The position numbers and the translations under genes were made by a program. Source: a virus (Duplodnaviria; Caudoviricetes). Taken from it: a DNA stretch of 64,000 bases. Below are positions 24,314-49,968 of the stretch, piece by piece. How positions within the stretch are numbered: the first letter of the stretch is position 1; each line of letters opens with the position of its first letter. The notes beneath the pieces are model-generated. The model ran no database searches, was not told the origin of the DNA, and worked only from the letters and a program-made list of their open reading frames with translations. The DNA is taken from positions 47,290 through 111,289 of IMG/VR virus record IMGVR_UViG_3300044656_000027; one strand, written 5' to 3'.

Positions 24314-25450
24314 TTACTCTGCGGTAGGCTTGATGATATCCCAAATTGTACTTGAAATATCCTTACCATCTAGCAAAAGAAACATAATTCCAGGGTGCGT
24401 AAGGTTTGCGTCCTTGACTGCAAGAGCAAAATCCTTACGAGTAAAATCTCTAGGAAGAGAGCTTACGATGCCGTCATAAAACAAAGTCTTCAAGATGAAG
24501 ACCTTACGGTCATAGTGATCCTGCAATTCCTTGTAAGTCTCCTGCAACCACGCGTGCCACTCATCCGGAACGATCTCAAGCAAGTCCGCAAGAGTCTTAC
24601 CATCCTTCATGTTCTCCCAGACGCGCCGCTTGGTCAAACCTGTGACAACACGGTGCAGAGCAACGTAATCATCCTGCTTCACCTTGATACGGTAGTCAAG
24701 GTTCGGAAAGTAGACCACGTAACCCTCTGCATTAGCCCGTGGAGGGCACTCCAGCGCCTCTCTAAGCGTCTTGTAGGGAAAGACCTTGGTCTGCTCCCCA
24801 TACCACTCGTATTGGCTCGGAGAGAGCCGTACAAGCCCTGTGGAAAGGTTACGCGCACCTAGCCACGTAAGTCCCTTACGGTCACCGTAGTTGACGACGA
24901 TTCGGTTCTCAGGGTAGATGATCTCTACCATGTATGTCCAGTTAGGATCAAGCAGACCTGTGTGCTGCTCCGCAAGCTTGCGCCCCATTACAGCCTGATC
25001 CGAATCGTAGGAACCCCGAGTGATAAGGGTCCACTTAGGCTCCCAAGGAGCGTAGTAAACAGCCGGAACAGAACGAACTGGGGTAGGGTCATGCCATCGG
25101 TCCTCAGGGAACTGCTGGTTGTAACAGAAGAGGATACCAAGAGACCCGTCCATCTTGTCAGAGACGTGGACTGGCTCATCCATAAGCTGCTTGTCATCCT
25201 CAGACAGGTTCATGAACTTGTCGAAAGGACGAGCCAGGACATTCCAGTTCTCATCAATTACAAGACCACGGCACTGCTTAGTTACCTCGTTCCACAGGTT
25301 ATCGAACTGCGCCTTCTCGGTATACCCCAAAATTCTAAAAGTCTTCTTGTGCAAGTAGCTTACTTCAAGAGTAAACTCATTAACCCGAATATACTTCTCT
25401 CGAACCATTTGACGGTAAAGATCCATATCCATCAAGTCCCAGAGCTTCAC
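24314..25450 (-). CDS. RNA ligase, T4 Rnl1 family
   Basis: CRGL, RPFDKF, KMDGSLG, EIIYPENRIVV, EGYVV, KVK; GTG start after GGAGGAGG. Confidence 0.92.
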   Translation of the reverse strand: MKLWDLMDMDLYRQMVREKYIRVNEFTLEVSYLHKKTFRILGYTEKAQFDNLWNEVTKQCRGLVIDENWNVLARPFDKFMNLSEDDKQLMDEPVHVSDKMDGSLGILFCYNQQFPEDRWHDPTPVRSVPAVYYAPWEPKWTLITRGSYDSDQAVMGRKLAEQHTGLLDPNWTYMVEIIYPENRIVVNYGDRKGLTWLGARNLSTGLVRLSPSQYEWYGEQTKVFPYKTLREALECPPRANAEGYVVYFPNLDYRIKVKQDDYVALHRVVTGLTKRRVWENMKDGKTLADLLEIVPDEWHAWLQETYKELQDHYDRKVFILKTLFYDGIVSSLPRDFTRKDFALAVKDANLTHPGIMFLLLDGKDISSTIWDIIKPTAE

Positions 25451-25862
25451 GATTTGCCTCCTCCTCATAGGTTTCTAGAATCTCACGCGCCCAAGCTACC
25501 AGGTCTTCAACCCTTTGTCCAAGAGGTTGCTTAGTTACCCAAAGTTCTAGATTTTCAAGACGATTGTCGTCTCGTACGCCATTCTTATGGTGCACATTCT
25601 CCCCTTTTCGAAGGGGTCTGTCAAGGTGTCTAGACATCACTAGCACATGCTCTAAAATAGTTCCATTTGCTTGTGCATTTGGATGTTCAGGAGCGTATAC
25701 ACGTCTATAACCTTGCTCAGTAGTTGTGCCAGCTCCGTTAGCCGCACGTCGTCTCACGGGGCGTAGTTCTTGACCTTTAGACTGTTGCCAATAGTGTGCC
25801 CCACACAGTCCGCGTCCTGTCACTTTGCCTCCACAATCAGGGAAGCTGCATGTCTTCTTCAT
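25380..25862 (-). CDS. HNH homing endonuclease
   Basis: EHVLVM...VHHKNGVRDDNRLENLELW; N-terminal CSFPDC...LCGAHY Zn finger. Confidence 0.9.
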   Translation of the reverse strand: MKKTCSFPDCGGKVTGRGLCGAHYWQQSKGQELRPVRRRAANGAGTTTEQGYRRVYAPEHPNAQANGTILEHVLVMSRHLDRPLRKGENVHHKNGVRDDNRLENLELWVTKQPLGQRVEDLVAWAREILETYEEEANREALGLDGYGSLPSNGSREVYSG

Positions 25863-25880
25863 AAACTTAATTGTAGCATA
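25863..25880 (-). promoter_or_regulatory. Extended -10 promoter, probably giving leaderless HNH mRNA
   Basis: TATGC-TACAAT then 7 nt to ATG; no SD. Confidence 0.55.
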
Positions 25881-25937
25881 GTTTAGATTCTAGTGTAAAA
25901 GAAAACCCCTGTCAAGAGACAGAGGCTTTCAGTGGAG

Positions 25938-26019
25938 TGGGTAGAGAGGGACTTGAACCCCCAGATCCGAAGAACGGGTTTTACAGACCCGCGCGCTACC
26001 AATTACGCTTTACCTACCC
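25938..26019 (-). tRNA. tRNA-Tyr(GTA)
   Basis: Cloverleaf by eye; cgggt-CTGTAAA-acccg; variable arm. Confidence 0.9.
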
Positions 26020-26020
26020 A

Positions 26021-26095
26021 TGGGGTGACCAACGGGGATCGAACCCGCGATACTTGAGTCACAGTCAAGCGTGTTACCGCTACACCATGGCCACC
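26021..26095 (-). tRNA. tRNA-His(GTG) with encoded G-1 and CCA
   Basis: cttga-CTGTGAC-tcaag. Confidence 0.92.
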
Positions 26096-26104
26096 ATGTG
26101 AAAG

Positions 26105-26175
26105 AGGGAAGCTAGGGACTCGAACCCTAAATGGCGGGGACACAATCCGCTATGTTACCGTTACATTAGCGACCC
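26105..26175 (-). tRNA. Atypical tRNA-like gene, GTG anticodon
   Basis: Good T and D arms; two acceptor-stem mismatches; loop TTGTGTC. Confidence 0.55.
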
Positions 26176-26181
26176 ATAGAC

Positions 26182-26211
26182 ACTATATCGGATTGGAACA
26201 GTAAGTGTCAA
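26182..26211 (-). promoter_or_regulatory. Internal tRNA-array promoter
   Basis: TTGACA-N18-TATAGT. Confidence 0.6.
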
Positions 26212-26212
26212 G

Positions 26213-26284
26213 TACGAACACCAAGAATTGAACTTGAAATTAGACTTTATCAGAGTCTCGTGATAACCGTTTCACCATGCTCGC
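26213..26284 (-). tRNA. tRNA-Ile(GAT)
   Basis: agact-CTGATAA-agtct. Confidence 0.88.
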
Positions 26285-26289
26285 ATTAT

Positions 26290-26598
26290 TTAAATATCCT
26301 CTAGCATGCGCTTAATGAAGCTCTTTGGCTTAGCTCCAACTGCATACTTAATGATACTGCCTTCGCGGAACAAAAGCAAGGTTGGTATAGATGAGATGTC
26401 GTACTTCTTAGTGAGGTTAGGATTCTCATCTGCGTTTACCTTGATGACCTTGAGCCAGTCGTTCTCTTCTGAGATAGACTCTAGCACAGGTGCCATCATC
26501 TTGCAAGGACCACACCACTCAGCCCAGAAGTCAACTAATACGTACTTGTTATCAGCAATTACTGAATCGAATGTTATTTCTGATACTGCCTGCATCAT
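26290..26598 (-). CDS. trxA: Thioredoxin
   Basis: LVDFWAEWCGPCK...SSIPTL. Confidence 0.95.
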   Translation of the reverse strand: MMQAVSEITFDSVIADNKYVLVDFWAEWCGPCKMMAPVLESISEENDWLKVIKVNADENPNLTKKYDISSIPTLLLFREGSIIKYAVGAKPKSFIKRMLEDI

Positions 26599-26610
26599 CT
26601 CTCCTTTACG

Positions 26611-26683
26611 TAGGGCATAGAGGAATTGAACCTCTTATCGTTGGGATATAAGCCCACTGCATCGACCGTTATGCTAATGCCCC
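26611..26683 (-). tRNA. tRNA-Ile(TAT)
   Basis: tggg-CTTATAT-ccca; canonical D and T arms. Confidence 0.8.
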
Positions 26684-26795
26684 AAAGCCCTGTCGCACAT
26701 TCTCCGACTCTCTATGTAACCTCATTCGGACTACTGTGAGACTTCTCTACTAACCCTCGTTACACAGGGTGTTTGATGGCTCGGACTAGCCAAAG

Positions 26796-26879
26796 CGGAG
26801 GATGAGGGATTCGAACCCCCACGGCTTTTACACCGTATTGTTTTCAAGACAACTCCACGCCACCGATGTTAGATCCTCC
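26796..26879 (-). tRNA. tRNA-Ser(TGA)
   Basis: ttgt-CTTGAAA-acaa; long variable arm; G discriminator. Confidence 0.85.
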
Positions 26880-26925
26880 ATGTGATAAGCCTTTTGGTTA
26901 GTAGGGCGCTTATCTAATCCCTAAG

Positions 26926-27013
26926 CGGAGATAGAGGGATTCGAACCCTCGGGGCGATTTGAATACCCGCTGCCTTTCCAAGACAGTGCACTAGACCTCT
27001 ATGCGATATCTCC
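26926..27013 (-). tRNA. tRNA-Ser(GGA)
   Basis: ctgtc-TTGGAAA-ggcag; long variable arm. Confidence 0.9.
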
Positions 27014-27022
27014 ATTATTTAA

Positions 27023-27127
27023 TTAGCGTGGATCAGGATTCTTTGTTCCACACTTTGGGCAATACAGATTTCTCTTATCAGAAGGCATATAGCACTTTGG
27101 ACAATAGAAGATACTTCCACCAGACAT
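27023..27127 (-). CDS. 34-aa Zn-ribbon microprotein
   Basis: MSGGSIFYCPKCYMPSDKRNLYCPKCGTKNPDPR; TAATG-coupled; absent from ORF track. Confidence 0.75.
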   Translation of the reverse strand: MSGGSIFYCPKCYMPSDKRNLYCPKCGTKNPDPR

Positions 27128-27210
27128 TATCGTGCCACCTTGCAGTTATAGCAGTGACCGTACTTGTCCATGTTGATGTGACCACAATACTTACACTTCC
27201 AAAAGCTCAC
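27127..27210 (-). CDS. 27-aa RanBP2-type Zn-finger microprotein
   Basis: MSFWKCKYCGHINMDKYGHCYNCKVAR; GTGA-coupled. Confidence 0.75.
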   Translation of the reverse strand: MSFWKCKYCGHINMDKYGHCYNCKVAR

Positions 27211-27299
27211 TTTGGCTTACCCTTCATCCATCGACAGTGCCAGCACTTTGCTTTTGCTTCATTGTTGTACGAGCCGCAGTTATTGCATTTCCAACCCAT
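27207..27299 (-). CDS. 30-aa RanBP2-type Zn-finger microprotein
   Basis: GGAGG RBS; MGWKCNNCGSYNNEAKAKCWHCRWMKGKPK. Confidence 0.8.
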   Translation of the reverse strand: MGWKCNNCGSYNNEAKAKCWHCRWMKGKPK

Positions 27300-27312
27300 A
27301 ATATCCTCCAAG

Positions 27313-27392
27313 CGGAAGGAGGAGGATTCGAACCCCCAGCTATTCACTGAACGGTTTAGCAAACCGTCTGCCAGACCCCTGACTCACCTTCC
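27313..27392 (-). tRNA. tRNA-Ser(GCT)
   Basis: acggt-TTGCTAA-accgt; variable arm. Confidence 0.85.
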
Positions 27393-27396
27393 AAAG

Positions 27397-27473
27397 AGCG
27401 CAGCAGGAGAATCGAACTCCAAACCAATCGCTTTGCAGGCGATCCCCAGACCATCCGAGTTAGGACACTGCGC
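27397..27473 (-). tRNA. tRNA-Cys(GCA), enlarged D region
   Basis: atcgc-CTGCAAA-gcgat; U discriminator. Confidence 0.8.
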
Positions 27474-27478
27474 ATAAG

Positions 27479-27558
27479 TGGAGCTGCGGGGATTCGAACC
27501 CCGGTGCTGATAACTTCCGACATGCGGTTTTAATCACCAGACGAAACCAACCAGCCCC
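27479..27558 (-). ncRNA. Minimal tmRNA-like RNA (tRNA-like domain only)
   Basis: GGGGCTG/CAGCTCC-A acceptor with G3.U70; GGTTTCG loop without D stem; P2-like helix; T arm; no tag ORF. Confidence 0.75.
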
Positions 27559-27655
27559 ATTGTGTCTGGCCTCATACGGGCTATTACCAGACTTGAAGTG
27601 CCCAGAGCCCGCACTTAGGGCTACTGTCCCGTAAAGGAATCTCGTCAGATTCCAG

Positions 27656-27726
27656 TACCCAGTGAGGGAATCGAACCCCCGCATGTGGTGTGTAAAACCA
27701 CTGGTCTCCCATTAACCTAACCGGGC
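27656..27726 (-). tRNA. tRNA-Val(TAC)
   Basis: gtggt-TTTACAC-accac. Confidence 0.88.
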
Positions 27727-27758
27727 AGGTAGAAGAACCGAAGTTCTTCTAGTATAGC

Positions 27759-27965
27759 TTAACTGCGATAGGCGATAAAGTCAACCGGCACGCTTTCCTC
27801 AACTCCATCGTGCCATCTGACATCTACGCAAGTGGTTCCCATCCAGTCGTACTCAGGGCAAAGAGTAACGCCTGAGTGATTACGACGAGAACCATTCCTA
27901 CCAACAACATTGATCCCTCGGAAGTTGGAAGGTGCTTCCTTCTTCTTACGACCAAACAGACCCAC
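27759..27965 (-). CDS. Hypothetical protein
   Basis: AAGGGG RBS. Confidence 0.55.
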   Translation of the reverse strand: MGLFGRKKKEAPSNFRGINVVGRNGSRRNHSGVTLCPEYDWMGTTCVDVRWHDGVEESVPVDFIAYRS

Positions 27966-27997
27966 TGTGTTCCCCTTCGTTAGTTGGTGTGTCTATC

Positions 27998-28276
27998 TTA
28001 GACCAGGTAGGACCAAGTGTCAACACTACCGTCAGTGCGCTTGAGGCTAATGGATCGATTGACCTCACCCTCCTCAAACGTCCAAGCCATCAGACGCAGG
28101 TGGTACTCAGTGTCAAGGTGCTGGGGAAGACCCATCTCCTCAAGCTCACACAGAGCCTCCATCGTCTTAGCCACGTTGTAAGCGGCAACGGCAAAGCTCT
28201 CAACAGGAACCGTAGAGCTCTTCTTAAAGCCGTCCTTGGACTCGACATCAATAGTGAGTGTAGCCATTTTGTGCAT
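27998..28276 (-). CDS. Hypothetical protein
   Basis: ORF between tRNAs; phage-like codon use. Confidence 0.55.
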   Translation of the reverse strand: MHKMATLTIDVESKDGFKKSSTVPVESFAVAAYNVAKTMEALCELEEMGLPQHLDTEYHLRLMAWTFEEGEVNRSISLKRTDGSVDTWSYLV

Positions 28277-28298
28277 CCCTTCGATTGATACTATGACG

Positions 28299-28371
28299 TA
28301 CCCTAGACAGGATTCGAACCTGCATTGAACAGCTTAGAAGGCTGGTGAGTTATCCGTTACTCTACTAGGGC
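28299..28371 (-). tRNA. tRNA-Arg(TCT)
   Basis: cagc-CTTCTAA-gctg. Confidence 0.9.
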
Positions 28372-28398
28372 AAGAGGGACCGAAGTCCCGGATACTGC

Positions 28399-28953
28399 TT
28401 AGTCCCACCACATAGCCTTAGCATATAGTGGATTCTCTTCTATGTCAACGTCCCACCAGTTATCAACCTCAGCCCAACGCCAGATCGTTCCCCAGTCGTC
28501 GTATCCATTAGGTACTTCGATAGCAGAATTTGGATCAGTGTCAGCATGGTGTCCCATGTAGTTAATAGCCTGCTTGAGTTGCTGCTTGACGTTGTGTCTG
28601 CGAGCCTGACTTACAGCCTTCTTAGCGCCGTGTCGTGGCCAACCGTAGCCTATATCAGTTGCGTAGTATTTGCAACCATCACGCCAACGATTGTGCGTAT
28701 GTGTCATTGGCTCATCAATATTACAAGGAACTTCCTCAGTCCAACGATCCCAGACGTGAACGGATTCTTGACGCTCTGGAATCTTGTAGTAACGCATTTC
28801 ATCCCAATCCCAAACATACTTGGAAGGGATGGTAGTTACATCCGTACGAACATACTCTCTTCGATGACGCAGATGATTATGGACAGCCTCACGGCGTTCC
28901 TTAGAGTCATTAGAGCGAACCCAGTAAGGACGATCCTTGCGAGTGCGGGACAT
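28399..28953 (-). CDS. Hypothetical basic/Trp-rich protein
   Basis: GGGAG RBS; MSRTRKDRPYWVR N-terminus. Confidence 0.6.
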   Translation of the reverse strand: MSRTRKDRPYWVRSNDSKERREAVHNHLRHRREYVRTDVTTIPSKYVWDWDEMRYYKIPERQESVHVWDRWTEEVPCNIDEPMTHTHNRWRDGCKYYATDIGYGWPRHGAKKAVSQARRHNVKQQLKQAINYMGHHADTDPNSAIEVPNGYDDWGTIWRWAEVDNWWDVDIEENPLYAKAMWWD

Positions 28954-29064
28954 ATTTACTCCCTTGTTAGTGCTAAAGCAAATGCCAGTATTTAGAGGAA
29001 CTGGCTGGCCTCCCGTTCATTGAGACTTTCTAGGGTGTGTTTCAGAACGGCTTAGATATCCCTG

Positions 29065-29140
29065 CACGGATGACAGGAGTTGAACCTGCATGTGTCCTTT
29101 AACCTTTCTACGCGTTCGTAGCGCGAGGGTATACATCCGC
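29065..29140 (-). ncRNA. Non-canonical tRNA-like RNA with ACG anticodon and no D arm in the usual place
   Basis: GCGGATG/CATCCGT acceptor; CGCG-CTACGAA-CGCG; 21-nt post-anticodon segment; T arm. Confidence 0.65.
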
Positions 29141-29551
29141 ATTAAGTTGCCACCAATTAAACTGTCTGGCAGTTCTGTATCTGTGACATTTGACACAACG
29201 AATATCGCACTTAGCGATCTCAGTTTGTAAAACTTCTAAACTAAGCTTTCGCTTAATACCATCCGCTATATTAAAACTTTTGGTTTCTGGATCTCGATGA
29301 TCAAAGTCCAGAAGGACTATATCAGACTCGCCACAATCTATACAGGGATTCTGATCATAGTAATTTACTAAGTAAGTTCTAACCTTTACTAGGTACTTCT
29401 CATCATTACGCCGTGCCTTAGCCAAGTAGCTTTGCTTATTAGCTTGATAATGCTCACGAGTATACTTACGATGACAAGGCTTACACATTGCACTCTTAGT
29501 TGCGAACTCTTCTTTGGCCAACTCTTGGTTGCACCTACTACATGTTTTCAT
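29108..29551 (-). CDS. HNH endonuclease
   Basis: KTCSRC...CKPC; PCIDCGE...LDFDHRDP...CDIRCVKCHR. Confidence 0.85.
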   Translation of the reverse strand: MKTCSRCNQELAKEEFATKSAMCKPCHRKYTREHYQANKQSYLAKARRNDEKYLVKVRTYLVNYYDQNPCIDCGESDIVLLDFDHRDPETKSFNIADGIKRKLSLEVLQTEIAKCDIRCVKCHRYRTARQFNWWQLNADVYPRATNA

Positions 29552-29571
29552 GCTACTAATTATAGCATAGG

Positions 29572-29609
29572 TTCGTAGGCAAGTGCTCTATCCGTTGAGC
29601 TATAGCACC
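29572..29609 (-). pseudogene. 5' half of tRNA-Arg(ACG), truncated at the anticodon loop
   Basis: GGTGCTA-TA-GCTC-AACGGATA-GAGC-A-CTTGC-CTACGAA followed directly by the HNH promoter; no matching 3' half seen. Confidence 0.75.
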
Positions 29610-29617
29610 ATACTTTG

Positions 29618-30121
29618 TTACTTCTTTAAACTTAGCAGATAATCTCTTATAGCACCAGGACTTGTCAAGTATGCTGGCTTGTTAGACAGCTTGGAACCCG
29701 CCAAATCGTAATCCTCAGCACAGAGTTGAGAGCAGATCAAGTGCTTGCTGTTAAGAACTCTAGCAGAGATCCAAGGAAGAGGCAAGTGCAGTCTCTTCGT
29801 GAAAATCGCAAAGTAATCCAGGAAACTGTATGGTGTGCCAATCTGATTGGTTGCTAGAGTAACGATAGTCACTCTTTGCTGAGCTGTCAAATCAATCAGA
29901 CCAGAGGACCACAGGATCTCTCGTCCATCGTACTTCGACAAGTTAGTTCTGATAGCACCACCAGGTTGAGCTTCTACGATCTCACCATTACCAATGTAAA
30001 TGAAGGCATGCTCATAGTTGGAGAAGCCATCTCCGTTAAGCCACTGGCCTAAGCGAATCAGCTTGCCCACAGTACCGTTGATACTTACTAAGCCTACATC
30101 ACCTGGTAATAGTTCCGCCAC
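29618..30121 (-). CDS. Permuted papain-like NlpC/P60 (YiiX/YaeF-like) protein
   Basis: PGD...YEHAFIYIG...VEA...GTPY...ICSQL (His before Cys); start trimmed. Confidence 0.8.
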   Translation of the reverse strand: MAELLPGDVGLVSINGTVGKLIRLGQWLNGDGFSNYEHAFIYIGNGEIVEAQPGGAIRTNLSKYDGREILWSSGLIDLTAQQRVTIVTLATNQIGTPYSFLDYFAIFTKRLHLPLPWISARVLNSKHLICSQLCAEDYDLAGSKLSNKPAYLTSPGAIRDYLLSLKK

Positions 30122-30251
30122 TACACTTCTCCTTGTGCTTAAAGAATGCTTTCTCTGCTTCACCCTCAGAGTCAAATGGACCCTCAGAATGCCTACCAGT
30201 AGCGCACTCGTGAGTAAACTTCCACTTACCTGGTCTATGTTGAATGACCAT
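30099..30251 (-). CDS. Small hypothetical protein
   Basis: AGGAGG RBS; MVIQHRPGKW... Confidence 0.5.
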   Translation of the reverse strand: MVIQHRPGKWKFTHECATGRHSEGPFDSEGEAEKAFFKHKEKCSGGTITR

Positions 30252-30266
30252 CTTTCCTCCTTTACG

Positions 30267-30339
30267 TACCCCCAGTGGGACTCGAACCCACACCACGCGG
30301 ATTAAAAGTCCGCTGCATTAACCGTTGTGCTATAGGGGC
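30267..30339 (-). tRNA. tRNA-Lys(TTT)
   Basis: gcgga-CTTTTAA-tccgc. Confidence 0.92.
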
Positions 30340-30363
30340 ATAGGGCCGAAGCCCTCTTTCGAA

Positions 30364-30798
30364 TTACTTACCAGTGCCAGCCTGAGCAGTAATGGTAGGA
30401 ATACCACCCTGACCAGAAGGAACGTAAACAACAGTGTTGTTCTTGCCAGACTCAGCGATACGCTCAAGAGCCTGAGTCATCTCGTACTGAACGTAGATGG
30501 GAGTCAGAGTCTTAGCGATCTCATCCTGAGCCTCACGGACACCAATGGCGTCCTGGAGACGAATCTCAGCCTGCTGCTTAGCAATCTGAACTCGCTGCGC
30601 CTGATTCTGGATCTCAATGTTAGAGACCTCAACCTGGTTATTCGCAGCAATAATATTCGCCTGAGCCTTGTTCTTAGCATCCTGGATATTCTGGTATCGA
30701 CCAAAAGCCTGGAAACCCGCAATGGCACCCATGAAGATACCGATTACAAGAGCCAGACCAAGAATCGCAGCAACACCCTTGCCCAGAATCTCAGACAT
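30364..30798 (-). CDS. Membrane-anchored coiled-coil protein (band-7 C-terminus-like)
   Basis: N-terminal TM; KTLTPIYVQY...TVVYVP. Confidence 0.6.
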   Translation of the reverse strand: MSEILGKGVAAILGLALVIGIFMGAIAGFQAFGRYQNIQDAKNKAQANIIAANNQVEVSNIEIQNQAQRVQIAKQQAEIRLQDAIGVREAQDEIAKTLTPIYVQYEMTQALERIAESGKNNTVVYVPSGQGGIPTITAQAGTGK

Positions 30799-30847
30799 TT
30801 AGTTATTCTCCTTCTTAATACTCCGAGTACCGATCTAATGATCGGAG

Positions 30848-30921
30848 AGCCCACTATGGGATTCGAACCCATGACCTCTTCATTACCAATGAAGTGCTCT
30901 GCCAGGCTGAGCTAAGAGGGC
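30848..30921 (-). tRNA. tRNA-Thr(GGT)
   Basis: cttca-TTGGTAA-tgaag. Confidence 0.92.
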
Positions 30922-31028
30922 AAAACAAGATTGAGATCGGGACGCCGAACTTGTCACTTCCCAGCGATACTGCCTGCATACAGTTCAATCTCTGGAACTC
31001 ATCTAAGCGCTTAGAGTGTTGTTCGTTG

Positions 31029-31100
31029 TACTCCGCCAGGGACTTGAACCCTGATCCATGGATTAAGAGTCCATTGCATCACCATTAATGCTTGCGAAGC
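31029..31100 (-). tRNA. tRNA-Lys(CTT)
   Basis: atgga-CTCTTAA-tccat. Confidence 0.9.
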
Positions 31101-31129
31101 ATAAGGCTCCTATTGGAGCCCGTTTTACG

Positions 31130-31435
31130 TTACTTACCAAAGAGCCAACGTGCAAGACCCTTTGTCTCTCGATAAGGCTCGTTCTCCTGGTATCCTCCAC
31201 CGAAAGTGCTCTCATACGCAAGACGCTCAGCAGAAACCTGTGCGTGACCCTCAGGAGTTAAAGGGGTACCACGAGAGAACTCCTTGCGCATACCGTCCTT
31301 GGAGGTATACTCGTTCACCTTGAAGTTAGGTGCTGGAGTATCGGAACCATCGTCCTTAAGATACTTATCGTAATAAGCATCGTAATGAACTCCGAGCTTC
31401 TTCTGCTCCTTAGGCGTAAGCCACTTCTCAGGCAT
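31130..31435 (-). CDS. Hypothetical protein
   Basis: GGGAGG RBS. Confidence 0.55.
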   Translation of the reverse strand: MPEKWLTPKEQKKLGVHYDAYYDKYLKDDGSDTPAPNFKVNEYTSKDGMRKEFSRGTPLTPEGHAQVSAERLAYESTFGGGYQENEPYRETKGLARWLFGK

Positions 31436-31469
31436 AAGGTTTTGCCTCCCTTATATTGGTTATAAAACG

Positions 31470-31541
31470 TGGAGCCACGGGGAATCGAACCCCGAACTTC
31501 GGATTGCAAAACCGATGTGTTTCCGTTAGCACCATGGCCCC
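31470..31541 (-). tRNA. tRNA-Ala(TGC)
   Basis: G3.U70; loop TTTGCAA. Confidence 0.9.
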
Positions 31542-31603
31542 AGTGTTCTCATCTAGTGTACCACACTCTAGATGAAATAAAAAGCCCAACTTAATGGGCT
31601 AAG

Positions 31604-31675
31604 CTCTCACAGCTGGATTCGAACCAACAACCTTGGAGTTAACAGCTCCCTGCTCTGCCATTGAGCTATGCGAGA
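31604..31675 (-). tRNA. tRNA-Asn(GTT)
   Basis: ggag-CTGTTAA-ctcc. Confidence 0.9.
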
Positions 31676-31746
31676 ATAAGCCTCAACCACTAGGGAAGAG
31701 GTGGTGTATGTTGTTTATCTTAGCAAACTCTCGTTAGAGAGTCAAG

Positions 31747-31817
31747 CAGGCCACCCAGGAGTCGAACCCGGCCGAATTGGGTTGGAACCAATCATGCTTC
31801 CGATACATCAGTGGCCT
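31747..31817 (-). tRNA. tRNA-Trp(CCA)
   Basis: attgg-TTCCAAC-ccaat. Confidence 0.88.
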
Positions 31818-31863
31818 ATATGGTTCCGTTGTTTCCCACGCACAACGGTTTCCTAAAAGCTCG

Positions 31864-31936
31864 TAGCGCCCGTCGGATTCGAACCGACACTGATTAGTTC
31901 CTAAGACTAATGCCTCTGCCATTGGGCTAGAGCGCC
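31864..31936 (-). tRNA. tRNA-Leu(TAG), short variable loop
   Basis: ttagt-CTTAGGA-actaa. Confidence 0.88.
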
Positions 31937-31976
31937 ATACGCACTCAGTGGCCAAAGCGGGTGAGTGCTTGTGTTA

Positions 31977-32420
31977 CTAGCTTATCAGATTATGAACGTA
32001 ATGGGAAGCTTCATAGTCTGACGCTGATGCATTGTGGATGCCTCCGTGTCCTCTGTGGTGCTTAGCACACAGGAACATGAAGTTCTCTTCTGATTCTACC
32101 CAAGCGCCCACTTCATTAGGATCAGAGATCCCAGGGAAGTCCTGCTCTAGGTACTTCAAGTCTACACCCTGCTGCATGCTGAATTCAACATGGCTGTGGT
32201 GTAGCTCCAGACCTCCAGCACACTCGGAAGTATCTCCGCCACGACGTAATGCGAATTCGCATACAGCGTCCTTGACGTGAGTCTTACGATAGTGCTCAAA
32301 GTCACGATAATGTGGATCATCCTTTCTAGCTGGATGAGCCGGAAATGCTACTGTGTAATGCTTAGTTTCAGCTTGTGTATGCGCTTCTACTACCTTACCC
32401 ATACTGGCCCTATCTGTCAA
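31977..32420 (-). CDS. His/Cys-rich protein, HNH-like
   Basis: LELHHSHVE...LCAKHHRGHGGIH. Confidence 0.5.
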   Translation of the reverse strand: MTDRASMGKVVEAHTQAETKHYTVAFPAHPARKDDPHYRDFEHYRKTHVKDAVCEFALRRGGDTSECAGGLELHHSHVEFSMQQGVDLKYLEQDFPGISDPNEVGAWVESEENFMFLCAKHHRGHGGIHNASASDYEASHYVHNLIS

Positions 32421-32998
32421 TAGCCCTTAGGTGGGCGTGTTGGATCAAATTGCTGAACCTTGGCAGCTAGGTCATGTCCATCTCTGGATACTCCATAGAA
32501 CTGTACCACATAGTTCATAGCCGCACAAGTGTTGGCTACGGCATCGTAAATGTCATATGACGTTCCAAGTTGGTGATACTTTGCAAAGGTTGGTGGAATA
32601 CATTGTAGAACACCACGAGAACAATTTGCAGGATGACCATCAGCAACGATAGGTCCAGTAGCGTTTAGATCATAAGTGTTTACTGCGTTAAAGTCATAAC
32701 TGCTTTCACGGTTGGCCGCAGTAACAAGTCCAGTCTTCCAATAACTCTGTGCTGTCGGATCAGTAATAGACATGATCTCGAATACCTTTGGCAGCACAGT
32801 AGAGGTAAAGGATACAGAGTTGTCTACTAGGCCGTAACTAACAGCACCTACACTAATAGGAGAAGGTGTAAATCCAGTGTCTACTGATATTTCGATACTG
32901 TTCTTAGTCAGCTTAGTCTTAGTTGTTATACCGTTAACAGTAATAATTGCAGTGGCCCCAAGAGGCAATGTGCCGGATGTAAATAAGTGCTCTATCAT
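32417..32998 (-). CDS. Lytic transglycosylase (SLT) domain protein
   Basis: RESS...AVNTYD.NA...SRGVLQCIPPTF...AAMNYV..YG; start trimmed. Confidence 0.85.
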   Translation of the reverse strand: MIEHLFTSGTLPLGATAIITVNGITTKTKLTKNSIEISVDTGFTPSPISVGAVSYGLVDNSVSFTSTVLPKVFEIMSITDPTAQSYWKTGLVTAANRESSYDFNAVNTYDLNATGPIVADGHPANCSRGVLQCIPPTFAKYHQLGTSYDIYDAVANTCAAMNYVVQFYGVSRDGHDLAAKVQQFDPTRPPKGY

Positions 32999-32999
32999 A

Positions 33000-33344
33000 T
33001 TATTCCAATTCAGTAATCGGTATCCAGCCCTTGCCCTCACGGCCCTCTACTAGAAGGTTACGAGGCTCCATGTCTCTGGCTACTCTGTCTTCAACCTTCT
33101 CAAGCCCATGAAGGGTCCTGTGTGTCCATATGCGGAACTTTGAGGACTCTGCCATACGTCTGAATGCCAAACGCTTGTTGATCAGCTGAGAGCGCTCCTC
33201 ACGGCTTTCACCTACAGCACCGGAAGGCTTATGAATTACTCTTACGCCCGTTTCGCGCTTATTCTGATTCTGACCACCCTTTCCTCCTGAACGGAAGGTT
33301 TGGACCTCACAATCATGAATAGTCACGCTAAATGCTTTTTCCAT
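33000..33344 (-). CDS. Peptide chain release factor (RF-1/GGQ) domain protein, ArfB-like
   Basis: [26 protein letters not shown]...ERSQLINK. Confidence 0.9.
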
Positions 33345-33345
33345 G

Positions 33346-33419
33346 TAGTCCTACTCGGATTCGAACCGAGAACCTTCACATTTTGAGTGTGACGCCTCTG
33401 CCAATTGGGCTACAGGACC
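33346..33419 (-). tRNA. tRNA-Leu(CAA), short variable loop
   Basis: tcaca-CTCAAAA-tgtga. Confidence 0.88.
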
Positions 33420-33472
33420 ATTTCTGCCCCCGATGGGCCTTGTGCACTGGAATTTCCAGGATCGGGGTAAAG

Positions 33473-33546
33473 TAGTCCTTGTCGGACTCGAACCGACACC
33501 TGAACAGGGTTTAAGCCTGTTGCCTCTTCCATTGGGCTAAAGGACC
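33473..33546 (-). tRNA. tRNA-Leu(TAA), same decoding as bldA
   Basis: acagg-CTTAAAC-cctgt. Confidence 0.88.
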
Positions 33547-33554
33547 ATAATGTG

Positions 33555-33625
33555 AGCCCTGCGAAGGAATTGAACCCTCATTTGCGCATTACGAAAGCGC
33601 TGTTCTGCCGTTTAACTAGCAGGGC
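33555..33625 (-). tRNA. tRNA-Thr(CGT)
   Basis: gcgc-t-TTCGTAA-t-gcgc. Confidence 0.85.
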
Positions 33626-33629
33626 AATG

Positions 33630-33769
33630 TGGATAGTTGGATTCGATGATTACCAACAAGGCATTTCCTACGTCATACAGTAAATACCTACCATCCCTTT
33701 GGGTGCTACCCAAGACCGCTAAGTCAGGATGTGCGTTCGACCCATAGGCGAGTCTTTTCCGCCATATCC
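33630..33769 (-). ncRNA. Expanded tRNA-like multi-helix RNA
   Basis: GGATA/TATCC-A closing stem; D-like and T-like arms; internal helices. Confidence 0.45.
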
Positions 33770-33795
33770 GGTCAGCATGATCAGTGCCGACTTTG

Positions 33796-33868
33796 AGCCC
33801 CCAGTCGGATTCGAACCGACGACCTACGCTTTACAAGAGCGTTGCTCTGGCCTCTGAGCTATAAGGGC
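33796..33868 (-). tRNA. tRNA-Thr(TGT)
   Basis: acgct-CTTGTAA-agcgt. Confidence 0.92.
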
Positions 33869-33910
33869 ATAGGGAGTCTCCGGAAGGAGGAAACAGAGAC
33901 TCCCAGTATA

Positions 33911-34204
33911 TTAGGCAGTTCCCGTAGCGGTAACTACCCAGTCTGTGTTTGCGTTCAGAGTAAAGTCAATTGGCTTGCTGAACGCGTTACCAGTTAGGTA
34001 AACAGTCCAAAGACCGTCAGTAGCACCAGCACCAGGAGCGTTAACTGCCTGCTGAATTGACGCAACTGTTGGATATCCCAGTCCAGAACCAGACGCAGGA
34101 GCGGTTTGCACGTAGCAGTGACCATCTGCGGCTGCTGCAAGAACAACCTGAGTACCCACAGTCAAAGCATTAACTCTGATTGGAGCATTGTAAGTAATTG
34201 CCAT
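33911..34204 (-). CDS. Hypothetical protein (virion-like composition)
   Basis: Ala/Thr/Gly-rich; start trimmed to ATG. Confidence 0.5.
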   Translation of the reverse strand: MAITYNAPIRVNALTVGTQVVLAAAADGHCYVQTAPASGSGLGYPTVASIQQAVNAPGAGATDGLWTVYLTGNAFSKPIDFTLNANTDWVVTATGTA

Positions 34205-34273
34205 AAGTGGCACCTTTCATGAAAGGGATTGAGCGCTATAGCATTCTCAATAATATCATGAAAGATTATTGTG

Positions 34274-34347
34274 CACCGAAGACGAGATTTGAACCCGCAA
34301 ATACCCAGCTTGAAAGGCTGGTGACTCTACCATTCGTCCACTCCGGC
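34274..34347 (-). tRNA. tRNA-Glu(TTC)
   Basis: ccagc-CTTTCAA-gctgg. Confidence 0.9.
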
Positions 34348-34496
34348 AAGCGCAGAGATGACACCAACCCCTGCGGTTATTACATAGTATTTAATAGGCA
34401 GCCTATCTCTTTTCGGCTAGCGGGAGGACAGGTAGCCCTTTAGCTCAGGCTTCCAACTCTTCCTTTATCCCTAGAGACCTATTATGGTGTCTTACG

Positions 34497-34570
34497 TACT
34501 CCGTACGGGATTCGAACCCGTATTCTCCCGGTTGAGAGCCGGGTGAGATGTCCTATTACTCTAACGGAGC
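34497..34570 (-). tRNA. tRNA-Glu(CTC)
   Basis: cccgg-CTCTCAA-ccggg. Confidence 0.9.
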
Positions 34571-34616
34571 ATACATCTCCTTGGTTGGCGAAGGAGATGG
34601 TTCCTCAATGTACGCG

Positions 34617-34689
34617 CGCCCCTGACGGGATTCGAACCCGCCCTTGCACCTTGACAGGGTACCGTGCTACTCCCATACACTACAGGGGC
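34617..34689 (-). tRNA. tRNA-Asp(GTC)
   Basis: gtacc-CTGTCAA-ggtgc. Confidence 0.9.
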
Positions 34690-34695
34690 TTTTAT

Positions 34696-35154
34696 TTACA
34701 CCATCTTAAAAGCTGCCGTACGCATGGCTTCTGCGAACTCCGTGTCAGGAAGTTTCTTGGCGTCTTGTGGTGCTTCTACATTACCAGTGAACACATCGTA
34801 TGTCAACTCACGTGTGTACTTGTTAGCGATCTTCTCCATCTGAACATACATGTCATTCAGCATGTTCATCATGTCGTTCTGCGCTCTCTGTGATAGAGAC
34901 CTTATACCATCCTGGCGTCCTCTGTCAACAGCAGCCTTGGTGTCCGCAGCAAACTCAGGTGTGTGAATTAGCGCGTCATTTTCGTTGTAGAGCTCTCGAA
35001 TCTTCTTCTCAGTCTCAGATAGCTTCTGACGTAGCGTAAGCGCCTCAGACTGCCATCTAGCCATGCCTAAGCGTGCTTCCTCAAGCTCCCACTTGGTGTC
35101 CTTGAGTTCATCTGACACAAGGGACAACGCGTTTCTAATTGCGGACTTCTTCAT
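34696..35154 (-). CDS. Coiled-coil hypothetical protein
   Basis: AGGAG RBS. Confidence 0.6.
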   Translation of the reverse strand: MKKSAIRNALSLVSDELKDTKWELEEARLGMARWQSEALTLRQKLSETEKKIRELYNENDALIHTPEFAADTKAAVDRGRQDGIRSLSQRAQNDMMNMLNDMYVQMEKIANKYTRELTYDVFTGNVEAPQDAKKLPDTEFAEAMRTAAFKMV

Positions 35155-35238
35155 TATATTCTCCTAGTTATTATCACAATGTAGTGACAGTATATCAGAG
35201 AATAGAAAAAGCCCCTGTAATACAACAGGGGCCTTAAG

Positions 35239-35529
35239 TTACTCAGCAGGCCAAGTAATGTTTGGTCGTTGAAACTTAACTCTGCCATTTCTTACAATGG
35301 CACGTTCAATATCTGGGGATTCCTCACCATAGCGAATCATAATCAGATACTTATCTGGATACTGGTACGCGATCTGCTGTAAATCCTCGTCCCAGTTATA
35401 CCACTTAGCGCTATACATGCAACCATCGTCATCCCAAGACGGACCATAATTGCCTGTATTAGCAGCAAGGACATCCTTAATATCAGGAATGTCCGTGTCT
35501 ACAGTTTCAAAATTTGAGTAATATCCCAT
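35239..35529 (-). CDS. Hypothetical protein
   Basis: AGGAGG RBS; MGYYS...KWY...GEE pattern. Confidence 0.65.
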   Translation of the reverse strand: MGYYSNFETVDTDIPDIKDVLAANTGNYGPSWDDDGCMYSAKWYNWDEDLQQIAYQYPDKYLIMIRYGEESPDIERAIVRNGRVKFQRPNITWPAE

Positions 35530-35652
35530 TCTTACCTCCTACGTAAGTGGTCTTCCCGTAGTCAGTGTGCACCTGACTTTTCCCGTACGTTCCTGCTGCT
35601 AGCTAGCGTTCACGTCTGTAGAGTGTTGTATCCCAGTTAAGGGACGGGGGCG

Positions 35653-35723
35653 CTGGGGCGCAGAGATTCGAACTCCGATAGGCTGATCCAAAGTCAGCAG
35701 TCCTGCCATTAGACGAAACCCCA
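35653..35723 (-). tRNA. tRNA-Gln(TTG)
   Basis: gctga-CTTTGGA-tcagc. Confidence 0.88.
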
Positions 35724-35739
35724 TTAAATTTGCTGCAAG

Positions 35740-35810
35740 CTCCCCGACATGGATTCGAACCACGATTTCTTCGTCCAGAGCGAAGCGTGCTGCCCTTACA
35801 CCATCAGGGA
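35740..35810 (-). tRNA. tRNA-Gln(CTG)
   Basis: cttcg-CTCTGGA-cgaag. Confidence 0.9.
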
Positions 35811-35848
35811 ATAAGTGCCCTGCTATTGCTAGCTGTTTATGGGCTAAG

Positions 35849-35921
35849 TACCGTATAGGAGACTCGAACTCCTTCGTTCACTTTGGAAGAGTGACATGCT
35901 GCCATTAAACATCAATACGGC
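35849..35921 (-). tRNA. tRNA-Gly(TCC)
   Basis: tcact-CTTCCAA-agtga. Confidence 0.9.
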
Positions 35922-35998
35922 ATTGCTTGTAGTCAGGCGGTTCTTTCAGGTTCTACAAGCTCCTCTGTCGCTACATATCGCAGCAACCGCCAGGAAAC

Positions 35999-36394
35999 TT
36001 AGTAATCGTCGTGAGATTCGTCTTCATCCCATTCAGGAACACACCAACCGCAATCACACCAGTCTTCGTAGTATTCCTCTTCCTCTTCGTCCTCATAACC
36101 AATCAAAGTTACTACAGGACCCGCAGAGGTTACATCTACGTCAACAATACGGTCAGAACCATCCTGAACCTCAGCAGATACTCCCCAACCCGTTTCAGAA
36201 CCATATTCAGCCTTCATAAGCTCCTCAATGAGGATACGAGTCAGATATGGAGTATCGTACTTGCGATTAAGTGCTCTTCCGACGCTTAGACCTGTCATAA
36301 CCATTGCTGGCAGGTCCGACCCATTCCAGTGAGTGTAAATGTACACACCTGGACGATTTCCTTCATGAATGTATACGTTAGCTCTATCTCCCAT
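35999..36394 (-). CDS. Hypothetical protein with acidic tail, probably leaderless
   Basis: MGDRANV..IYTHWNG; ATG 7 nt after -10. Confidence 0.65.
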   Translation of the reverse strand: MGDRANVYIHEGNRPGVYIYTHWNGSDLPAMVMTGLSVGRALNRKYDTPYLTRILIEELMKAEYGSETGWGVSAEVQDGSDRIVDVDVTSAGPVVTLIGYEDEEEEEYYEDWCDCGWCVPEWDEDESHDDY

Positions 36395-36401
36395 GTGAGA
36401 G

Positions 36402-36430
36402 ACTGTACTACATTCACTTGAAGATGTCAA
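36402..36430 (-). promoter_or_regulatory. Promoter (leaderless)
   Basis: TTGACA-N17-TACAGT, 7 nt to ATG. Confidence 0.65.
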
Positions 36431-36431
36431 G

Positions 36432-36515
36432 TGGTAGCGGAGGCGGGATTTGAACCTCTTTGTGCGATCTCTAGCTTATGAGGCTAGCGAGATGACCTAG
36501 CTTCTCTACTCCGCG
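36432..36515 (-). tRNA. Initiator-like tRNA-Met(CAT) with T-stem insertion
   Basis: C1:A72 mismatch; encoded CCA; ctagc-CTCATAA-gctag. Confidence 0.75.
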
Positions 36516-36517
36516 AG

Positions 36518-36589
36518 TACCGGGAGTGGGAATCGAACCCACGACGACAAGGTTATGAATCTTGCGTTCTACCATTGAACTATCCCGGC
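36518..36589 (-). tRNA. tRNA-Met(CAT) elongator (or Ile2)
   Basis: Loop TTCATAA. Confidence 0.82.
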
Positions 36590-36599
36590 AAAAGATATG

Positions 36600-36672
36600 T
36601 GCCGCCTGTAGGACTCGAACCTACGACCTGTCGGGCTTCAACCGACCGCTCTTCCAACTGAGCTAAAGCGGC
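36600..36672 (-). tRNA. tRNA-Phe(GAA)
   Basis: gtcgg-TTGAAGC-ccgac. Confidence 0.9.
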
Positions 36673-36746
36673 AATACGAGTAATTACTATGTTTAGTACC
36701 CTAGTCCATTATATTTAGCGGTATTTACTAGTCTATTACTCAAACT

Positions 36747-36821
36747 TGGTCGTCTTTGTGGGGCTGGACCCACTCCTCTGCCCTCCCACGGACAGTGTGC
36801 AACCGGTTACACCATTAGACG
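36747..36821 (-). tRNA. Degenerate tRNA-Pro-like gene with 8-nt anticodon loop
   Basis: C1, A73, CCA; ctgtc-CGTGGGAG-ggcag; aberrant T loop. Confidence 0.45.
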
Positions 36822-36826
36822 ATAAG

Positions 36827-36898
36827 TCGGGTACCGGGGAATCGAACCCCGTTTATCCTGATCCCAAATCAGGCGGATTACCATCTTCCTCGTACCCG
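36827..36898 (-). tRNA. tRNA-Pro(TGG)
   Basis: cctga-TTTGGGA-tcagg. Confidence 0.9.
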
Positions 36899-36955
36899 AG
36901 GGCTCATAGGACGGAAGGGAAACATCCTATGAGCTTTTCGAAAGGAGGCAAGATC

Positions 36956-36984
36956 AGTATAACTCATCTTCTTCCTTAATGCAA
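36956..36984 (-). promoter_or_regulatory. Promoter at head of tRNA array
   Basis: TTGCAT-N17-TATACT. Confidence 0.65.
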
Positions 36985-37743: not shown

Positions 37744-38208
37744 TTATGAGGTTGGTGCAGGAAGAGCAAGTGTAGCACAGATTACCAGAGCTACTGCAAC
37801 GATTGAGACAGCGAATGTCTGTACCAGAGCAGTCTTCCAACCCAGATCCTCCTTCTTCATGTACGCTACCACAAAGGTCATACCAATGTAAATACCAACA
37901 GCAGACCAGAGGGCTACTGTTCCTCCTATGAACGCAAAAGGTATCACAGGAGCGAAACAGCCTATAGCAGTAAAGATACCCATATAAGTAGCAGAACGTA
38001 GTCTAGTTCTCTTGGGTATAGACTTATCTGAGGATAGATATTCTCCTAGTCCCATAGAGATAGCTGAACTAACAGCTAATCCTATACAAGTAACAAAGAC
38101 TAGTACATGAGAGAAAGCTAATAGAGGGATTAATACTCCTAGTAAAGAAGTTAATCCATCAAACATTCCAAATATAGAAGGCTTAAGTAAGTCTTTATCT
38201 ATCTTCAT
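37744..38208 (-). CDS. VIT1/CCC1-family Fe/Mn transporter
   Basis: IFGMFDGL...SAISMGLGEYLS...GCFAPVIPF; about 5 TM helices. Confidence 0.85.
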   Translation of the reverse strand: MKIDKDLLKPSIFGMFDGLTSLLGVLIPLLAFSHVLVFVTCIGLAVSSAISMGLGEYLSSDKSIPKRTRLRSATYMGIFTAIGCFAPVIPFAFIGGTVALWSAVGIYIGMTFVVAYMKKEDLGWKTALVQTFAVSIVAVALVICATLALPAPTS

Positions 38209-38233
38209 AACTATCTTTCTAATATAAATATTA

Positions 38234-38296
38234 AGGGTAGCAGAGAGTGGTACATCTGTCAAGTCCTTGACTTTGTACTACGATCTCTGGTAGAGT
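38234..38296. promoter_or_regulatory. Back-to-back divergent promoters
   Basis: Minus TTGACA-N17-TACCCT; plus TTGACT-N18-TAGAGT; at the strand switch. Confidence 0.65.
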
Positions 38297-38960: not shown

Positions 38961-39138
38961 TGAAATTCGCAATATGACCATGTCCGAGTATGCTATTTGG
39001 CGCAATACTGTGCTTATTCCTACTGGAGACTATACAGAAATCAAAGATTATGATTATTATCGTGAATTGTATGTCACCACAGGAGACTGGCGCTATTTCT
39101 ATTCAATGCTAGAGAAAGTAGACCCAAATGGCTGGTAA
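38947..39138 (+). CDS. Hypothetical protein
   Basis: Coupled ORF. Confidence 0.5.
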   Translation: MVSVDEIRNMTMSEYAIWRNTVLIPTGDYTEIKDYDYYRELYVTTGDWRYFYSMLEKVDPNGW

Positions 39139-47832: not shown

Positions 47833-47836
47833 TAAT

Positions 47837-49967: not shown

Positions 49968-49968
49968 A

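Follow-up and report, generated by a model that had tools for sequence, protein, structure and literature searches.

The question raised by this locus is whether a dense group of translation-related genes in a phage genome works as one system or is a set of independent accessories. The group comprises an array of tRNA genes, a transfer-messenger RNA (tmRNA) reduced to its tRNA-like domain (TLD), a stand-alone GGQ (RF-1 domain) protein and an RNA ligase. It lies in the window analysed here, a stretch of 64,000 nucleotides that corresponds to bases 47290–111289 of a 111,289-bp IMG/VR virus record (IMGVR_UViG_3300044656_000027) bounded by direct terminal repeats. An earlier interpretation of the same letters, referred to below as the sequence-only reading, had proposed that the phage takes over host translation, with the TLD RNA acting as a decoy and the GGQ protein releasing the nascent chain in place of SsrA/SmpB rescue. 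In our comparison with related genomes, the mini-tmRNA and the GGQ factor come out as accessories that are separate from each other, and the locus is probably a translation-support island of a BRock-like phage whose modules were gained and lost independently. The portal protein of this phage shares 78% identity with the portals of Streptomyces phages BRock, Alone3, LuckySocke, GiJojo and pSt2308, and 86% with the portal of G068, an uncultured record of 111,138 bp. In a search of sequencing runs, the stretch was detected in DNA metagenomes of soil, rhizosphere and roots, and no RNA dataset matched.

The TLD-only tmRNA was borne out both by its match to the Rfam tmRNA family, which lies above the gathering cut-off (Table 1), and by its structure. 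The 83-nt RNA forms a 7-bp acceptor stem (GGGGCUG/CAGCUCC) with a G3:U70 pair and a T arm (CGGGG-UUCGAAU-CCCCG), and it contains a D-loop analogue; CCA is not encoded. One short hairpin occupies the place of helix 2, the tag reading frame and the pseudoknots. No tag frame, resume codon or pseudoknot was found in the 83 nt, ARAGORN called neither a tmRNA nor a tag peptide, and the Rfam alignment jumps the interior of the model. All features of the type described for Mycobacterium phage DS6A are present, namely both acceptor strands, G3:U70, the D-loop analogue, the single short hairpin and the T arm. In an alignment with the RNAs of DS6A, BRock, G068 and other IMG/VR members, the stems of the acceptor, the hairpin and the T arm all have compensatory changes. 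SmpB was not found in the phage genome, and the TLD RNA would therefore have to use the alanyl-tRNA synthetase (AlaRS), SmpB and EF-Tu of the host. Its most likely action, with these partners, is to compete with the tmRNA of the host for stalled ribosomes, which would block or short-circuit degradative tagging. The DS6A TLD RNA, when expressed in Escherichia coli, inhibits the endogenous tmRNA (PMC11915505, PMC4131195).

The same RNA is conserved in the cultured relatives. Its position between the tRNA-Cys and tRNA-Val genes is shared by the window phage and the Streptomyces phages. The RNAs of BRock, GiJojo and pSt2308 score above the cut-off, and that of Alone3 is weaker, with a mismatch in the T stem. 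In the BRock record, the only relative whose annotation was read, the TLD RNA is not annotated. An nhmmer search with a single TLD sequence returned almost nothing and the exact loop pattern found only one other contig, and a more general pattern was used. It matched at least 120 viral loci in IMG/VR. Among the matches listed, the 7-bp acceptor stem is perfect in 104, and G3:U70 is present in 104/104 of these; the 104 comprise 89 unique sequences, mostly 75–82 nt long, with extensive covariation in the acceptor and T stems. At least 104 contigs (L094–L212) thus contain a DS6A-type TLD RNA, and the true number is higher. Sub-threshold 75-nt ‘tmRNA’ matches in two records (G031 and G034) are ordinary tRNA-Ala genes and were excluded from the counts. 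No protein family was consistently found beside the TLD among the loci listed; in many small high-GC phages the TLD lies inside the structural gene block, near portal, protease, capsid, HNH and terminase genes. In the papers found, phage tag-less tmRNAs are known from DS6A alone. Beyond those papers, TLD-only tmRNAs are broad in phages and conserved in cultured Streptomyces phages, unannotated at least in BRock, and the question of how a phage benefits from a tag-less tmRNA becomes directly testable in a tractable host.

A different role for this RNA is conceivable, if rather unlikely. As a tag-free rescuer, Ala-TLD with SmpB would accept the stalled chain, and the peptidyl-TLD would then be freed by drop-off and host Pth or by any GGQ factor. 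Ribosomes would be recycled without marking phage proteins for proteolysis, as is thought for organellar tmRNAs that lack a coding sequence (CDS-less). The retention of G3:U70 and of the SmpB-binding TLD architecture in all of the perfect-stem RNAs among the matches listed, as well as the position of the TLD among late structural genes in many small phages, would fit such a role, and mitochondrial CDS-less tmRNAs that co-occur with SmpB are thought still to aid on incomplete mRNAs (PMC11915505). However, the sole cited experiment, with DS6A RNA in E. coli, gave tmRNA inhibition (PMC11915505, PMC4131195), and the release step is only putative.

The relatives separate the TLD RNA from the GGQ gene. 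The former is kept in 5/5 close relatives (G068, BRock, Alone3, GiJojo and pSt2308) and the latter is found in 0/5, with PF00472 absent from BRock, Alone3, GiJojo and pSt2308. The arrays of two of these relatives, G068 and BRock, were read, and both retain the ligase together with a tRNA array in syntenic order. The GGQ gene is the first of three genes of a 1.4-kb accessory cassette, the site of which measures 169 nt in G068 (where it does not fall at the contig break) and 13 nt in BRock. The clade shares the ligase, the thioredoxin and several small open reading frames (ORFs); the GGQ gene, the two ORFs downstream of it and both HNH genes are outside this conserved set. The 193-aa ORF of the cassette has weak SLT/tape-measure-like matches. 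A conserved protein neighbour of the GGQ gene was sought and not found, and neither the 193-aa nor the 141-aa ORF is linked to GGQ elsewhere. The GGQ gene was probably acquired recently here on this small cassette. In G028, a record with a portal identity of 54%, a GGQ gene is present, and the TLD and Rnl1 are absent.

The same picture was obtained on a wider sample. Among 50 TLD-bearing viral records, an RF-1 domain gene was found in two (2/20 of those that are at least 90% complete). In the other direction, 71 IMG/VR loci with GGQ homologues were fetched with up to 10 kb on each side, and 50 whole records were scanned. Ten or more tRNAs were present in the fetched stretch at 22 of the 71 loci, and 29 had no tRNA at all. 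The 50 GGQ-bearing records contained ten tmRNA matches above the cut-off, eight of full length and two TLD-only (G008 and G037), so most records had none; a further TLD-only match, in G030, lies slightly below the cut-off. The tags that ARAGORN reads in the mycobacterial prophage-type GGQ-bearing family end in ALAA or VLAA. The sequence-only reading had offered co-occurrence of TLD RNA and GGQ gene across related phages as its test, with independent assortment as the outcome that would speak against it; independent assortment is what the relatives display, and on the sequence side the proposal is therefore contradicted. Models that couple the GGQ factor to the mini-tmRNA are disfavoured, as each is an accessory in its own right.

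The GGQ protein itself matches the profile of the phage protein family phrog_3122 over its full length. The match (E-value 2.6e-42) covers residues 2–111 and profile positions 22–131 of 136, and the family contains more than 3,000 proteins of ∼105–130 aa with a conserved C-terminal mini-domain (F70, W73, M92 and W107). The ATG of the gene begins 1 nt past the discriminator of a CCA-less tRNA-Leu(CAA). The sequence-only reading had called the product ArfB-like. The GGQ catalytic domain is confirmed, but the likeness to ArfB is not: the last 30 residues contain five K/R and eight D/E (net charge −3), so there is no basic tail, and the ArfB model (NCBIfam NF006718) reaches 22.5 bits against a cut-off of 100, over residues 4–37 only. 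The models of RF1, RF2 and PrfH score ∼50–55 bits, confined to the GGQ domain. PrfH is a protein of ∼200 aa with an RF2-like domain 2/4 besides the GGQ domain, and its model (TIGR03072) gives 53.3 bits against a cut-off of 166–167, within the GGQ domain only, which places the 114-aa protein outside PrfH. In the AlphaFold model (pLDDT, the predicted local distance difference test, 84), the best structural matches are domain 3 of RF1, RF2, mtRF1 and PrfH, with ICT1 at rank 47. The protein is a candidate codon-independent peptidyl-tRNA hydrolase from a large, mostly metagenomic family that also occurs in phages.

Two further elements had been assigned to the takeover, RNAs complementary to the Shine–Dalgarno (SD) sequence and leaderless phage genes. 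CCUCC occurs in two or three hairpins (33872–33904, 36942–36977 and 34574–34599). In 2,880 nt of intergenic RNA from the minus strand, two matches of at least 6 nt to the 3′ tail of 16S rRNA were counted where 0.76 would be expected (P 0.19), and the opposite strand has an equal number. One of the loops is not conserved in relatives. At 36942–36977 the CCUCCUU stretch forms one side of a stem, opposite AAGGAAG, and is therefore not displayed; in the first of the two hairpins of 36902–36977, AAGGAAG pairs with GCCUCCUU. A bias of ribosomes by anti-SD RNAs is not supported by these data, and the hairpin pair may be a processing or attenuation element of the array transcript. As for the leaderless genes, three candidates stand (25862, 29551 and the ORF at 36394), each of them lacking an SD and having a −10 element 7 nt ahead of its ATG, and most other genes have clear, strong AGGAGG-type SD sites. 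Since leaderless messages are common in actinobacteria, the candidates do not set the messages of the phage apart. The idea of a promoter motif common to the leaderless genes was rejected: the window contains TGCTAYAAT only twice, and about one occurrence would be expected by chance.

The idea that tRNAs, TLD RNA, GGQ protein, RNA repair, anti-SD RNAs and leaderless genes form one takeover system, in which the TLD ties up SmpB or prevents SsrA tagging while the GGQ protein gives tag-free release, is accordingly improbable. The parts do co-occur in the genome, co-oriented within 12 kb; the TLD and GGQ pairing is also found in G008, G037, G067 and perhaps G030; and, from the biochemistry of trans-translation, Ala-TLD would leave a peptidyl-RNA requiring a hydrolase. 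Coupling of TLD decoy and GGQ release as a replacement of SsrA/SmpB rescue is nevertheless disfavoured by the five closest relatives, by the 48/50 TLD-bearing records without a GGQ gene, by the GGQ-bearing records, most of which have no TLD and 8/50 of which have full-length tmRNAs, by DS6A, which has a TLD and no GGQ gene, and by the location of the GGQ gene on a genome-specific cassette. The anti-SD motifs, at chance level and unconserved, and the SD sites in most genes argue in the same direction. The HAD phosphatase and the DEDDh RNase that had been counted with the system are indeed nearby, but they are not co-oriented with the rest and belong to a divergent plus-strand block.

The tRNA-repair module fared better. 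The Rnl1 ligase was confirmed by its PF09511 match and by the KxDG motif (KMDG, lysine K99); its likely start is the GTG at 25450, which is preceded by an AGGAGG SD. It is a distant member of the family (42 bits against 242 for the NCBIfam equivalog TIGR02308) and is kept in G068 and BRock. The healing partner that was missing from the window is a T4-type Pnkp with kinase and phosphatase domains, encoded 41 kb from the ligase gene. Both parts of the pathway are present, as judged by homology, which supports the proposed repair of tRNA, an activity that is putative: tRNAs that host anticodon nucleases have cut could be healed and sealed by Rnl1 together with the distant Pnkp. The 378-aa metallophosphoesterase downstream of the ligase was considered as a Pnkp-like enzyme and rejected, as it has no P-loop and the true Pnkp lies elsewhere in the genome.

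The presence of ligase and Pnkp would also suit a role of the TLD RNA, the GGQ protein or both in counter-defence, either as decoys for tRNA/tmRNA nucleases or RNase R, or in the release of ribotoxin-stalled ribosomes in the manner of PrfH with RtcB2. The GGQ domain is nearest to domain 3 of RF1, RF2 and PrfH by score and fold, the pair PrfH and RtcB acts in the rescue and repair of damaged ribosomes (PMC9304027), and tRNA and tmRNA fragments act in an anti-CRISPR complex (PMC11662646). We consider this role improbable as well, since the GGQ protein is without PrfH domains 2 and 4 (53 against 167 bits), and the ligase is of Rnl1 type, not RtcB, and is kept in relatives that have no GGQ gene. 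Least probable of all is a two-step tag-free rescue in the phages that have both parts (the window phage, G008, G037 and G067), in which host SmpB would deliver Ala-TLD and the GGQ mini-factor, which has no mRNA-channel sensor and would have to recognise the peptidyl-Ala-TLD complex specifically, would hydrolyse it. More generally, DS6A-type TLD RNAs would on this view be a means, widespread among phages, of rewiring trans-translation in the host.

To return to the translation-support island, its largest module is the tRNA array. The full set of 20 amino acids stands as predicted, and the count by ARAGORN is 32 instead of 31, with 28 tRNAs supported by Rfam at gathering score. The gene order is syntenic with G068 and BRock. 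Phage genes have a third-position GC content (GC3) of 0.47 and prefer A/U-ending codons such as CTT, CTA, AGA, GTA, GCT, GGT and CCA, and ARAGORN finds U34 species to be abundant in the array, including Leu-UAA, Arg-UCU and Ile-UAU. The 32 tRNAs would mainly supply readers for A/U-ending codons that are used by this 48% GC phage and poorly read by a high-GC host. Because these codons and the U34-rich tRNAs go together with a host that is presumably high in GC and of Streptomyces type, codon supply appears to be the simplest account of the set. Replacement of host tRNAs cleaved by nucleases is compatible with the data as well.

Several observations concern individual members of the array. The HNH gene at 29108–29551 is inserted after the anticodon loop of the 5′ half of tRNA-Arg(ACG). 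This half (29572–29609, minus strand) looks normal and stops directly after the anticodon loop CUACGAA, just upstream of the HNH gene promoter, and a tRNA-Arg(ACG)-like RNA without a D arm (29065–29140, minus strand; Rfam tRNA 27.1 bits, slightly below the cut-off) overlaps the final codons of the HNH gene. G068 and BRock have a single intact tRNA-Arg(ACG) at the corresponding site, and CGT makes up 40% of the phage Arg codons. A group I intron was rejected as an explanation, as there is no Rfam intron match and too little space for an intron core. Between two tRNA-Ser genes there are three tiny tandem ORFs in three different frames (27014–27311, minus strand), each a CxxC...CxxC zinc ribbon; the first reads GWKCNNCGSYNNEAKAKCWHC and has a RanBP2-like appearance. 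The tRNA array of a relative (L018/L083; G008) contains a match to the selenocysteine tRNA model at gathering score (47.2 bits, 6196–6277).

Some points weigh against the island reading and should be considered together. The phage appears to be a BRock-like (Borockvirus-type) soil Streptomyces phage, with a host assigned from its relatives only. The GGQ protein would have to find stalled ribosomes with neither an ArfB tail nor codon-reading domains. Some form of tmRNA is present in 9–10/22 GGQ-bearing records that are at least 90% complete, and the frequency of tmRNA in phage genomes generally is 2.3% (PMC9004378); this enrichment leaves room for a looser functional link between GGQ and tmRNA. 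Most of the tmRNAs behind the enrichment encode a tag, contrary to the logic of rescue without tagging, and both GGQ and tmRNA also track large tRNA-rich phages. Our comparison shows which parts are present, how they are built, how far they are conserved and how they are distributed; from this we infer every activity, as well as the host. The coordinates of the features are given in Table 1.

Table 1. Features of the translation-support island, its surroundings and the TLD RNAs of cultured relatives (window coordinates unless another record is named)
Feature	Position	Strand	Evidence or remark
MazG-like pyrophosphohydrolase	22129–22551	−	downstream of ligase
Metallophosphoesterase, 378 aa, phrog_221	22551–23687	−	downstream of ligase
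Rnl1-family RNA ligase	24314–25468	−	PF09511, 55.8 bits vs 28.3, E 7.6e-15
HNH endonuclease, leaderless candidate	25380–25862	−	extended −10 (TGCTACAAT) ending 7 nt before ATG
tRNA array, 32 genes, all 20 amino acids, with small ORFs and HNH genes between	25937–36898	−	ARAGORN
Thioredoxin gene within tRNA array	26290–26598	−	kept in relatives
TLD-only (CDS-less) tmRNA, DS6A type, 83 nt	27476–27558	−	Rfam RF00023, 58.2 bits vs gathering cut-off 47
HNH endonuclease, phrog_2255, leaderless candidate	29108–29551	−	extended −10 (TGCTATAAT) 7 nt before ATG
Accessory cassette, 1.4 kb: GGQ gene, 193-aa ORF, 141-aa HNH-like ORF	31977–33344	−	comparison with G068 and BRock
Stand-alone GGQ (RF-1 domain) protein, 114 aa, phrog_3122	33000–33344	−	Pfam RF-1, E 4e-16, 59 bits; acidic C-terminus
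Hairpin, loop UUUCCUCCUUC, after conserved 97-aa ORF	33872–33904	−	relatives: hairpin here without CCUCC loop
Two strong hairpins immediately upstream of first array tRNA (Pro)	36902–36977	−	kept in G068, not BRock
HAD phosphatase, RNA-repair ‘Swiss army knife’ type (HAD_SAK_2)	39128–39667	+	profile match
Rv2179c-like DEDDh 3′–5′ exoribonuclease	40379–40987	+	profile match
T4-type Pnkp, kinase and phosphatase	genome G000:29914–30801, outside window	−	AAA_33, E 3.5e-15; HAD_PNKP, E 7.6e-47
TLD-only tmRNA, BRock	KX925554.1 97140–97220	−	80–81 nt
TLD-only tmRNA, GiJojo	PP725410.1 17025–17105		80–81 nt
TLD-only tmRNA, pSt2308	PV588686.1 33356–33436		80–81 nt
TLD-only tmRNA, Alone3	OR725492.1 18155–18234		80–81 nt; 36.8 bits

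The island is part of a longer transcribed region. Leftward transcription runs from ∼38.3 to 22.1 kb through small genes, the tRNA array, the RNA ligase, the metallophosphoesterase and MazG, and the structural module (terminase, portal and capsid) comes after MazG. The divergent rightward block begins at 38.3 kb. The first gene of the leftward block (37744–38262, minus strand) encodes a membrane protein of the VIT1/CCC1 family (iron/manganese transporter-like), which is unusual in a phage. At 44000–58000 the GC content is 52–59%, compared with ∼48% in the remaining window, which hints at a gene block of different source; a DUF6011 protein is encoded inside it (45575–46624).

Among the known systems closest to the locus are BRock (Borockvirus brock) and its relatives Alone3, LuckySocke, GiJojo and pSt2308, which share the order metallophosphatase, RNA ligase, tRNAs and thioredoxin. 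They differ from the window phage in that they are without the GGQ cassette and the two HNH insertions, and their tRNA-Arg(ACG) is intact. The TLD-only tmRNA of DS6A (Hudson, Lau and Williams 2014, PMC4131195; PMC11915505) resembles that of the window in its length of ∼80 nt, G3:U70 acceptor stem, T arm, UUCGAC-type D-loop analogue, short hairpin with the loop AAAACCGCAYG(Y)CGG, and the lack of both a tag frame and a phage SmpB. However, the D-loop analogue of the window RNA is UUUCGUC, unlike DS6A, and DS6A is a 60-kb phage without a GGQ gene, whereas the window RNA belongs to a 111-kb Streptomyces-type phage that has one and lies within an array of 32 tRNAs.

Like the window protein, ArfB (YaeJ)/ICT1 consists of a lone small GGQ domain that lacks the domains for stop-codon recognition, and the window protein is a plausible codon-independent peptidyl-tRNA hydrolase. 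The basic C-terminal tail with which ArfB senses an unoccupied mRNA channel is absent from it, its fold ranks nearer to domain 3 of RF1, RF2 and PrfH than to ICT1, and the conserved C-terminal mini-domain is the family's own. The repair by Pnkp and Rnl1 in T4, which counters the anticodon nuclease PrrC, is matched by an Rnl1-family ligase with its KxDG lysine at K99 and by a two-domain Pnkp (P-loop kinase and HAD phosphatase). Here, unlike in T4, 41 kb lie between the two genes and the ligase is a distant member of its family; no cognate host nuclease is known.

The combination, which the sequence-only reading did not recognise as a described system, has close precedents. Morgado and Vicente (2018, PMC5966550) described arrays of tRNA genes from mycobacteria and mycobacteriophages that also hold tmRNA, RF-1 and Pth genes, and a second precedent is the tag-less tmRNA of the DS6A type (PMC4131195, PMC11915505). 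The mycobacterial and mycobacteriophage arrays (cluster C1 Bxz1-like, Nanosmite/EniyanLRS-type; PMC5966550) are similarly large, with HNH genes between the tRNAs and a tmRNA gene inside, and the 114-aa ‘RF-1 peptide chain release factor’ of mycobacteriophages is 55–69% identical over its full length to the window GGQ protein. They differ in host lineage, the window phage being of Streptomyces type, and the related Mycobacterium prophage-type IMG/VR records have full-length tmRNAs with ALAA or VLAA tags, whereas the tmRNA of the window phage is a TLD alone. The island is thus a further example of the known phage tRNA arrays with rescue genes, and its main value is comparative.

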